Of a stretch of DNA of 40,184 bases, positions 18,822 through 19,903 are shown one piece after another (positions within the stretch are counted from its first letter, which is position 1; each line of letters begins with the position of its first letter). Location of the stretch: positions 1-40,184 of the forward strand of contig JAWOFP010000029.1 in assembly GCA_046497485.1 (NCBI GenBank), written 5' to 3'. The notes beneath the pieces were generated by a model. The model made no database searches. It saw only the letters and a program-made list of their open reading frames with translations, and was not told the origin of the DNA. Origin of the DNA: Candidatus Nanohaloarchaea archaeon (GTDB lineage: Archaea; Nanohalarchaeota; Nanosalinia; Nanosalinales; Nanosalinaceae). Position numbers and translations under genes: made by a program.

Positions 18822-18911
18822 GCTTTATTTCAGGTATTGAAGGTTTTTAGTTGTTTTTCAGAGCGTTATGGAACTAAAGATTTTTAAGTAGGGGGCGGCA
18901 ATTGTTAGATG

Positions 18912-19393
18912 AAAATGGCCCTAGTTGCTAATACTAAATGGCTGACCGGAAACATGTCCATGTCAATGGATCTGGTGAGACCTAGCTTTAACCATAGGGC
19001 CAAGACTAAATTCTCCATTATTAATTATCTGGCAGAGTAAAGCGGGATGAAGTCTTGGTCCGATTGGTGGACCAACGACCGACCGCGAATACTCAAAAAA
19101 TTACAAAAGCTTAGTTGACCTCTGCTTCTGCGGAACAGATTAGGTTAGAGGACAACTAGCAAGGGCAGGTCTGGCTTGCAAGGTGAGGCCTGCTCTTCGA
19201 CCCCTCTTATCAACGACTTAAACTTTGATAGATTAGAAGAGGTGCCAACCAAAAAATGAACGCCAACACACGCGACTTTGAAGCCGAACTTGAAGCACAG
19301 GACTTAGAGGTACGAGAAGCTCCTAAAGTTAATTCGGAAGCAGAAGTAGTTACAGCGACCGCTCTCTAAGAACATAAAAGCAGTGCTGCCAGA
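18912..19393 (+). ncRNA. Putative large structured RNA or structured leader, class unknown
   Basis: TTTTTAAG box at 18881-18888 followed by at least six helices (see findings) in an otherwise gene-dense region. Ends are approximate. Confidence 0.65.
19256..19369 (+). CDS. Unannotated 37-aa peptide inside the structured RNA
   Basis: GAGGTG SD at 19239-19244; MNANTRDFEAELEAQDLEVREAPKVNSEAEVVTATAL; acidic with host-like codon usage. Confidence 0.6.
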   Translation: MNANTRDFEAELEAQDLEVREAPKVNSEAEVVTATAL

Positions 19394-19426
19394 GAAAAAG
19401 GAAAGAATTCCTCCAGAGGAAAAGAT

Positions 19427-19903
19427 TTATTCCTGATTACTGTAGGCAGCAGACTCGAAAGCAGCCCAGCCGTTAGCCATAGAATCCAGTATCGAAGTAA
19501 AAGACTTAGCTGGCTTCACGACTTTTCGACGGCCTTGAGACCCTTCATTCGAATCACGATACTCCAAATATTCATACTGAATCACGCCTAGACGACGCAA
19601 CTTTGGCAAAATATTGTTCTTAAGATTTGACAGGCCTTTCTCATGACCCCATTCACCGAAATTATTTAATTTTTCTGAATCAATCTCTCCTTCAGCCTTT
19701 AATTCTCGCAGAAAGATTTTTGCGTACTTGTTCCGTTTCGGCGATTGTTCATGTGGGAAGAAAAGATCGACGAGTTTCTCCCAGTTCCAGGCCCTTTCAC
19801 TTAACTTGTATTTTTGTCTATCTTCAGGGATGGCTATAGAGTTTTTAGTTACAATAGTAGAGGTCTTTCGTGCTTCCTCATCTACAAATGGATGATCTGA
19901 CAT
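19427..19903 (-). CDS. Hypothetical protein, probable winged-helix DNA/RNA-binding fold
   Basis: 158 aa; NILPKLRRLGVIQY...GRRKVVK recognition helix and wing pattern; unusually non-acidic for this proteome. Confidence 0.75.
   Translation of the reverse strand: MSDHPFVDEEARKTSTIVTKNSIAIPEDRQKYKLSERAWNWEKLVDLFFPHEQSPKRNKYAKIFLRELKAEGEIDSEKLNNFGEWGHEKGLSNLKNNILPKLRRLGVIQYEYLEYRDSNEGSQGRRKVVKPAKSFTSILDSMANGWAAFESAAYSNQE

Follow-up and report, generated by a model that had tools for sequence, protein, structure and literature searches.

Can a single short archaeal RNA hold two mutually exclusive folds, and what would choose between them? The question is raised by an intergenic stretch of contig JAWOFP010000029.1, from the assembly GCA_046497485.1 of a Candidatus Nanohaloarchaea archaeon (Nanosalinaceae), of which the 40,184 nt analysed are referred to here as the window. 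We know of hardly any regulatory RNAs in DPANN archaea and of few archaeal RNA switches that have been validated. A preliminary description of the window, made from its sequence, had taken overlapping helices between 18916 and 19079 as a hint of a conformational switch, as in riboswitch expression platforms and attenuators, with 18916-19002 as its possible sensor or aptamer domain. We find that these helices belong to a single-copy structured RNA, with a core at ~18908-19100 of the + strand, which represents a new, family-restricted structured RNA family of Nanohaloarchaea. Both of the competing pairings are retained across this family, and the hairpin formed by one of them carries the sequence signature of a kink-turn (K-turn). 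The RNA could plausibly act as a conformational switch, with a protein rather than a ligand as its more probable effector.

The conserved core consists of a long irregular 5' hairpin, a single-stranded linker and a K-turn hairpin, and its pairing segments are named A to D in their order along the RNA (Table 1). Segment A, UGGCCCUA (18916-18923), closes the 5' hairpin by a perfect 8-bp stem with UAGGGCCA (18995-19002). The 3' part of segment B, GGGCCAAGACU (18997-19007), can pair with segment C, AGUCUUGGUCC (19051-19061), over 11 bp with one G-U, and the hairpin of C with D (19052-19061/19069-19079) is present in the window's minimum-free-energy fold. The preliminary description had these three helices right, and their competition is real: the 11-bp helix uses nucleotides 18997-19002, which also take part in the closing stem, and 19051-19061, which also belong to the hairpin. 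An exhaustive helix listing showed it to be the longest contiguous helix in 18907-19100; among 1000 dinucleotide shuffles any helix of at least 11 bp arose in 93, and one with at most one G-U in 6.

Several lines of evidence define the RNA and its strand. Folding of the + strand core is better than that of shuffled sequences (z -3.43, 0 of 200 equally good), that of the - strand is weaker (z -2.48), and 18908-19275 as a whole reaches z -6.0 with 0 of 100 shuffles as good. G-U pairs, which are A-C mismatches on the opposite strand, are common in the supported helices and fix the + strand. Rfam had no match to the region at the gathering threshold, and its E-value mode (E up to 10) gave three chance-level matches far under their cut-offs, i.e., mir-2013 (18.7 vs 70 bits), NEAT1_2 and a viral pseudoknot. 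Among 50 genomes from its family, blastn recovered the stretch from 41, including 21 of the 23 of high quality. A covariance model built from 40 homologs found the RNA at full length and in a single copy in 44 of 70 genomes of the class. By family, it occurs in 42 of 49 other f1 genomes, in 1 of 10 from f3 and in 0 of 10 from three further families. The RNA is therewith single-copy in ~86% of sampled family genomes. We also scanned 185,579 species genomes with a degenerate 24-nt pattern from the most conserved block, which returned 29 loci, 23 of them titled Nanohaloarchaea, Nanohalobium or Nanosalina, one Asbonarchaeaceae and five 'uncultured archaeon'. No description of the element was found in the literature on Nanohaloarchaeota non-coding RNA, riboswitches, small RNAs and RNase P.

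At its base the hairpin has the order of a box C/D-like K-turn (GCGG-GAU-GA / GA-CCGC), i.e., a C-helix, the bulge GAU, tandem G.A and A.G, a G-C and a Y-R pair, a bulged C and a covarying apical stem. Ten nucleotides are invariant in all 44 homologs (G19044, G19045, A19047, U19048, G19049, A19050, G19081, A19082, C19083 and C19084), the bulge is GAU or AAU in every sequence, and the bases that would make the tandem G.A/A.G pairs are in place at the sequence level. The C-helix pairs in 100% of cells while covarying (GC in 39, GU in 4 and AU in 1 sequence at one pair; CG in 34, UG in 8 and UA in 2 at another). In the arm above, the 4b-4n pair is GC in 42 sequences and GU in 2, the 5b-5n pair (171-208) is CG in 33 and UA in 11, a further pair of the hairpin is CG in 21, UA in 19 and AU in 2, and compensatory changes occur in every one of the apical 6 bp. 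Overall, the hairpin is 98.6% paired with 64 double-change cells, values reached by 0 of 500 shuffles, and its covariation score is 0.396 against 0.222 for shuffles. An outer helix of the window's fold, GAGUA/UACUC (19035-19039/19090-19094), is not conserved (50.9% of cells pair), so the C-helix is only 4 bp long.

Box C/D small RNAs (sRNAs) have a C box RUGAUGA and a D box CUGA, together with C'/D' boxes and guides of 10-12 nt. The hairpin resembles their K-turn in that GAUGAAG and CCGA flank a terminal 4-bp stem with the same geometry as C/D boxes, and in its 3-nt bulge that ends in U and is followed by G.A, A.G and G-C. However, its 3b.3n position is A.C instead of U.U and the motif lies inside a much larger RNA. 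Identity with a box C/D sRNA was rejected, as there is one C-like and one D-like box only, and between them, unlike in these sRNAs, runs a continuous self-paired hairpin with no guide and no C'/D' boxes.

The alternative helix is likewise retained. Segment B is made of one to three CCAAGG copies, in tandem in most homologs, of which the first, with the next two bases, pairs with segment A, while the last (B2, CCAAGRCU) is complementary to segment C, which reads AAGYCUUGG... in homologs. A duplex search showed that each of the 44 homologs can form an alternative helix, 8-12 bp long; together with the paired state of the hairpin this means that both pairings are retained, the alternative one mainly through invariant bases, whereas the preliminary description had named the conservation of only one as grounds to abandon a switch. 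When B2 was placed by motif alone and compared with C in fixed columns, 91.2% of 456 cells paired, a slight understatement because MAFFT misplaced three rows (L041, L042 and L044) of alignment A4 and left gaps at six pairs; disregarding these rows, the inner nine pairs are 95-100% paired. Both sides have changed at four pairs; the changes include C-G to U-A in three sequences (L014, L018 and L056) and A-U to G-C in one (L038), and apart from the pair with U-A there are A-U or G-C variants at three pairs. The covariation score is 0.156 against 0.136 for shuffles, 2 of 500 of which reach it.

A comparison of duplexes within and between homologs points the same way. Cognate B:C duplexes are more stable than non-cognate ones (-18.25 vs -17.16 kcal/mol, permutation p 2e-4, 40 sequences), as are those of the closing stem A:B (-17.43 vs -16.06 kcal/mol, permutation p 2e-4, 40 sequences), whose segment A columns are paired by RNAalifold. 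Covariation is strong for A:B, as it is for C:D and for the hairpin downstream of the core. Within the 5' hairpin, an inner helix joins 18942-18950 (CUGACCGGA) to 18971-18979 (UCUGGUGAG); 87.6% of its cells pair, and five of nine pairs have changes on both sides. The same test was null for 19 of 21 unrelated control segment pairs, so phylogeny or base composition alone does not yield the B:C effect. Pairing of A with D is weak (p 0.03).

With each state forced in turn, and in an energy model that excludes K-turn and protein energies, the gap between the two folds (B:C minus C:D) averaged +3.2 kcal/mol (standard deviation 5.8) over the 44 homologs; B:C was the lower state in 14 of them, and the gap was no larger than 3 kcal/mol in 19. 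In the window itself C:D is the state of minimum free energy, with a gap of +7.2 kcal/mol. Transcription reaches B2 and C ahead of D; by this order the alternative helix should be the first to form, and it must then be displaced by D. Folds of truncated transcripts agree with this: in transcripts cut just after C, before the 3' strand of the hairpin, B:C is part of the minimum-free-energy fold in 34 of 44 homologs, with A still paired to B in 30. Once the full core is folded, 21 homologs contain C:D and 12 contain B:C.

A possible link from this core to a gene lies in the linker between the two hairpins. Many homologs have a linker that complements the ribosome-binding region of a small open reading frame (ORF) downstream, and the cognate duplexes are again the more stable (-10.24 vs -8.83 kcal/mol, p 1e-4). 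Changes on both sides of this pairing are found in L053 (CUGGCUGAG with CACAGCCAG) and in L020 and L045 (CGUGGAG with CUCCACG), and of 40 ribosome-binding regions, 9 contain a 5-mer complementary to the linker where 2.9 would be expected; 1 of 2000 shuffles reached the observed count. In the full-length fold of the window, UGGCA of the linker pairs with UGCCA right behind the Shine-Dalgarno sequence.

The ORF itself, whose product in the window, MNANTRDFEAELEAQDLEVREAPKVNSEAEVVTATAL, is unannotated, was found by motif search downstream of the RNA and in synteny at 38 of 41 loci, with a length of 37-45 aa; among the three misses, one locus is cut off by the end of its contig, and at another a variant ORF can be seen by eye. 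Its codon-position entropies (0.61, 0.41 and 1.15), i.e., variation mainly at third positions, indicate that it is coding. In several homologs the apparent start codon is a GTG within the AGGUG, and the window's ATG corresponds to ATC, ATT or ATA. The 37-aa product belongs to no Pfam or NCBIfam family, a search with the 41-aa homologue from L011, restricted to proteins of 22-72 residues, gave no homolog, and an Atlas search with the ORF gave no match above 0.79.

Table 1. Features of the RNA locus, with positions in the window
Feature	Position	Strand	Remarks
BRE (factor B recognition element)/TATA-like promoter AAAGAUUUUUAAGU	18876..18889	+	upstream of the RNA
Segment A UGGCCCUA	18916..18923	+	5' strand of closing stem; GGCCUUGG in most homologs
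Inner helix and apical loop of 5' domain	18940..18982	+	loop carries conserved GGAAACAUGU
Segment B	18995..19007	+	B1 (18995-19002) pairs with A; B2 (18997-19007, GGGCCAAGACU) can pair with C
Single-stranded linker	19008..19041	+	highly conserved CUGGCAGAGUAAAG
K-turn bulged strand	19042..19050	+	C-helix GCGG 19042-19045, bulge GAU 19046-19048, G19049, A19050
Segment C AGUCUUGGUCC	19051..19061	+	5' strand of non-canonical arm; also partner of B2
K-turn hairpin loop	19062..19068	+	from the fold
Segment D GGACCAACGACC	19069..19080	+	3' strand of non-canonical arm; C19076 bulged
K-turn non-bulged strand	19081..19086	+	G19081, A19082, then CCGC
Downstream hairpin	19161..19197	+	covarying stem; conserved 13-nt loop GGCUUGCAAGGUG (UGCUUGCAAGGUG in most)
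AGGUG and conserved 37-aa ORF	19240..19369	+	AGGUG 19240-19244; ORF 19256-19369 including stop; MNANTRDFEAELEAQ...VVTATAL

Taking these observations together, the reading that we tentatively prefer is a switch gated by a K-turn-binding protein such as L7Ae, or by folding order, and linked to translation of the mini-gene; the protein gating and the translational output are what we infer from the whole of the analysis. The RNA would be transcribed from its own TATA promoter, and B:C would form first during transcription and then be displaced by D. Pairing of C with D would build the K-turn, while pairing of C with B2 would destroy it and erode the closing stem. A K-turn-binding protein, most plausibly L7Ae and with no small ligand involved, would capture and lock the K-turn fold, and the choice of fold could set the accessibility or stacking of the linker and thus its reach to the ribosome-binding region of the mini-ORF.

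The closest precedent is the autoregulation of L7Ae through a K-turn stem-loop in the 5' untranslated region (UTR) of its own gene, where binding of the protein switches the conformation of the l7ae 5' UTR stem-loops and occludes the ribosome-binding site (Daume et al. 2017, PMC5539422; Huang, Ashraf and Lilley 2019, PMC6298567). The K-turns of these UTRs likewise have a GAU bulge (PMC6298567), and the sequence described here shares with them this bulge, the tandem G.A/A.G, a short C-helix and a -1b:-1n pair other than C:G. The -1b:-1n pair of our K-turn is G:C, and such a pair is reported to block ion-induced folding, while L7Ae still folds K-turns of this kind (PMC6298567); not being C:G at this position, the hairpin should need a protein for its folding. 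Set against these descriptions, the present RNA is not upstream of l7ae, its length of ~190-350 nt includes a large extra 5' domain, its unbound state is a defined competing helix of 10-11 bp and not unstructured RNA, and its ribosome-binding site is ~160 nt from the K-turn, with L7Ae binding as a prediction. An L7Ae gene is present in the source genome, on another contig than the RNA. Its 5' leader (L086 1391-1462, G000 contig C62) reads CCUUGAUGAAAAC...GGGAGAGGUU, which may be a K-turn-like autoregulatory element, although no clean K-turn could be drawn by eye.

A number of observations weigh against a regulated switch. Judged from the alignments, the functional evidence for the alternative helix is weaker than that for the K-turn hairpin: because the B:C columns barely vary, the excess over shuffles is small (12 double-change cells vs 7.9, and 91.2% vs 89.6% of cells paired), and the invariance could instead reflect recognition of the repeated CCUUGG/CCAAGG elements by a protein. 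In individual homologs D is the better matched partner, e.g., a 2-nt insertion in C of L009 and L010 is matched by a change in D yet leaves a bulge in B:C, and the B:C helix of L040 contains an A.C mismatch to which D, but not B, has adapted. The weakest alternative helix, of 8 bp in L019, is shifted to a different site in B, where UUUAGAG matches an altered C (CUCUAAA). The balance of the two folds is not uniform either, with energy gaps from -11.8 to +18.9 kcal/mol. As to the output, linker duplexes of -11 kcal/mol or stronger are limited to 15 of 40 homologs, the match in the window itself is weak (-9.8 kcal/mol), and a weak second TATA-like element follows the downstream hairpin; it may serve the ORF as a separate promoter, in which case the RNA could be a small RNA in its own right.

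There are two serious rivals, a static ribonucleoprotein and a kinetic intermediate. In the first, which we regard as unlikely but well worth weighing, the RNA is a static ribonucleoprotein scaffold or small RNA, in which the repeated CCUUGG/CCAAGG stems are protein sites or relics of duplication and B2:C is a by-product. It would account for CCUUGG occurring twice and CAAGG four times (B1, B2, D and the downstream loop), for the parallel changes that A and C sometimes undergo (L038 and L044) and for B:C columns that are almost invariant, a property that makes the pairing inseparable from sequence-specific recognition. It accounts less well for B2: where there are two CCAAGG copies, two B2 bases pair with A, yet B2 complements C over 9-11 nt. 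The compensatory U-A and G-C changes listed above keep B:C intact, and the greater strength of cognate B:C duplexes, set beside the largely null control pairs, also speaks for a pairing that is maintained as such.

In the second rival, B:C is a transient folding intermediate that guides or delays the K-turn hairpin and is always resolved, with no sensing or regulation. The counts from the cut and full-length transcripts, as well as the C:D fold of the window with its gap of +7.2 kcal/mol, are what such an intermediate should give. However, the 14 of 44 homologs in which B:C is predicted to be the more stable state would not resolve unaided, and 10-11 bp exceeds the length that a folding guide needs. 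In our view a mere intermediate is rather unlikely.

Sensing by the 5' domain enters two further readings. The one that stays near the switch preferred above makes the RNA a new class of riboswitch-like sensor in archaea, whose conserved 5' domain (18916-19002) would read a physical or chemical signal, e.g., a ligand or, given the extremely halophilic life of these archaea, the ionic conditions. The signal would bias the strand exchange between B:C and the K-turn hairpin, after which L7Ae would fix the outcome and set translation of the lineage-specific microprotein; we hold it to be improbable. The other, the metabolite or ion riboswitch with an aptamer at 18916-19002 and the competing helices as its expression platform, is a similarly long shot. 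Overlapping alternative helices do look like an expression platform, the whole leader is highly structured (z -6.0), and the 5' domain contains conserved internal-loop and apical nucleotides (AAUACUA, CUAUAAC and GGAAACAUGU). Of the original proposal, a conserved structured + strand RNA that retains both pairings stood up, while no sign of a small-molecule or ion ligand was seen.

Metabolite sensing in particular found no specific support: there is no Rfam riboswitch at either threshold, and the associated gene encodes the 37-aa protein, which is in no known family and is neither a transporter nor a biosynthetic or other metabolic gene product. The hairpin, first taken as a plain competitor, is better described as the arm of a K-turn; since this motif is one that proteins bind, an effector of that kind suits it better than a metabolite would, and a 'platform' hairpin of this K-turn type requires protein to fold (PMC6298567). 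Neither a poly-U nor a U-tract terminator was found after 19086, and the Shine-Dalgarno sequence (at 19240) and the ORF start lie well beyond it, the latter ~170 nt downstream. A platform coupled directly to a terminator or ribosome-binding site is hence not what the locus has; the sole coupling seen is the statistical long-range complementarity of the linker to the ribosome-binding region.

Bacterial attenuators and expression platforms (1:2 / 2:3 / 3:4) offer a further comparison. The ordered segments A-B-C-D match this scheme, as A:B with C:D excludes B:C and segment 4 need not have been transcribed for the 2:3 helix to form. Unlike in attenuators, no U-tract or start codon stands right behind segment 4, there is no leader peptide or known aptamer, the context is archaeal and the 3:4 hairpin is a putative protein-binding K-turn.

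A divergent housekeeping RNA missed by Rfam (RNase P, signal recognition particle (SRP), transfer-messenger (tm) or box C/D guide RNA) would be similar in length and single-copy conservation, and RNaseP_arch scores no higher than 14.1 bits in the source genome, but this reading is hardly credible: the RNA is confined to one family, ARAGORN finds no tRNA or tmRNA, there is no guide segment or C'/D' pair, and locus comparison refutes the RNase P and SRP identities. The genome's own SRP RNA (RF01857) is on contig C59 with 105 bits. RNase P RNA (RF00373) has no match in the region at E up to 10, and its matches in relatives lie apart from the homologs of our RNA (C40 vs C34 in G003, C23 vs C13 in G004, 914713 vs 35132 in G022 and 127157 vs 961251 in G005). 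The best RNaseP_arch score of 14.1 bits in the source genome, which is 97% complete, is at G000 contig C51:24368-24508, and 9 of 41 genomes exceed the family cut-off; such low scores indicate that the RNase P RNA of this family is divergent and poorly covered by Rfam.

The RNA sits in a 434-nt gap between a NUDIX gene (- strand) on one side and the small ORF (+ strand) on the other, in a source genome of ~0.97 Mb; the window encodes very acidic proteins, among them a family-B DNA polymerase and an archaeal pilin. A TATA-like hexamer precedes a conserved AUGG in 44 of 44 homologs at a median centre-to-motif distance of 33 nt, which by the usual archaeal spacing would place the transcription start at ~18907-18911, 5-9 nt before the first helix. 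In most relatives a conserved gene in divergent orientation, whose reverse complement reads ATG/GTG AGG YTC GAA, begins ~30-40 nt upstream of the TATA box, and in the genus of the window the NUDIX gene replaces it. The synteny of RNA and mini-ORF is constant while this left neighbour differs. Complete genomes exist for some family members that carry the element.

Between the core and the ORF lies a second hairpin, whose strands form far stronger cognate than non-cognate duplexes (-24.21 vs -13.28 kcal/mol, p 2e-4, 36 sequences) and whose 13-nt loop resembles a Shine-Dalgarno sequence, like the AAGGUG of the ORF. Behind it come CUCCGGAAC and a weak T/A-rich element, a possible second promoter or termination site. 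The mid region ahead of it (~19110-19160) forms in many homologs a small hairpin with a common motif, CCUGCCAUCUCUACACCGUGG, and in the window a different one (CCUCUGC...AGAGG). We also weighed a second relay: the 5' strand of the downstream hairpin would be taken up by the mid region, releasing a CCUCC anti-Shine-Dalgarno sequence. This relay gave no cognate signal (p 0.70 for the mid region against the 5' strand and p 0.11 for the 3' strand against the ribosome-binding region).

Metatranscriptome assemblies contain this locus. One contig of 364 nt spans 18924-19287, from the RNA core into the ORF, and others cover 18945-19206, 19087-19237 and 19233-19383; they show presence in RNA libraries and bridging, and not strand, ends or a single transcript. 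The contigs of runs X1, X2 and X4 cover 18924-19383 only and not the flanking ORFs, and the bare flanks were not used as evidence. In run X3, a soda-lake library flagged 'RNA? (probably DNA)', contigs 90-95% identical extend over 19017-19502, with word depths of 226-872 over the RNA/ORF region and 6-11 over the flanks. This contrast could mean high expression in a relative or the summed conserved sequence of several organisms.

A transcript of this kind may have been seen before. STRG.4577.1 is a conserved, structured, intergenic small RNA of 266 nt from nanohaloarchaea in halite metatranscriptomes, reported without a function (Gelsinger et al. 2020, PMC7002113). Compared by description only, it may be the RNA studied here, as it comes from the same taxon, is intergenic and is near in length to the ~270-300 nt from our start to the downstream hairpin; it is described without a K-turn or an alternative fold, unlike the RNA here (PMC7002113).

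The RNA is among the best-conserved non-coding sequences of ~1-Mb genomes that have lost most regulation. K-turn-based regulation in it, as our analysis would have it, differs from the known cases in locus, size, the competing helix and the distance to the ribosome-binding site. If L7Ae gates the RNA, natural switching by K-turn and L7Ae would no longer be confined to l7ae autoregulation but would include a defined two-state RNA, the synthetic L7Ae/K-turn switches of biotechnology would have a natural counterpart, and there would be a handle on a conserved 37-aa protein that is so far unannotated. Should the reading with both a signal and L7Ae be true, this would be the first two-input RNA switch, responding to signal plus protein, to be described in DPANN archaea. 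Even if the switch idea fails, the nanohaloarchaeal element is a new RNA family worth modelling and adding to annotation pipelines.

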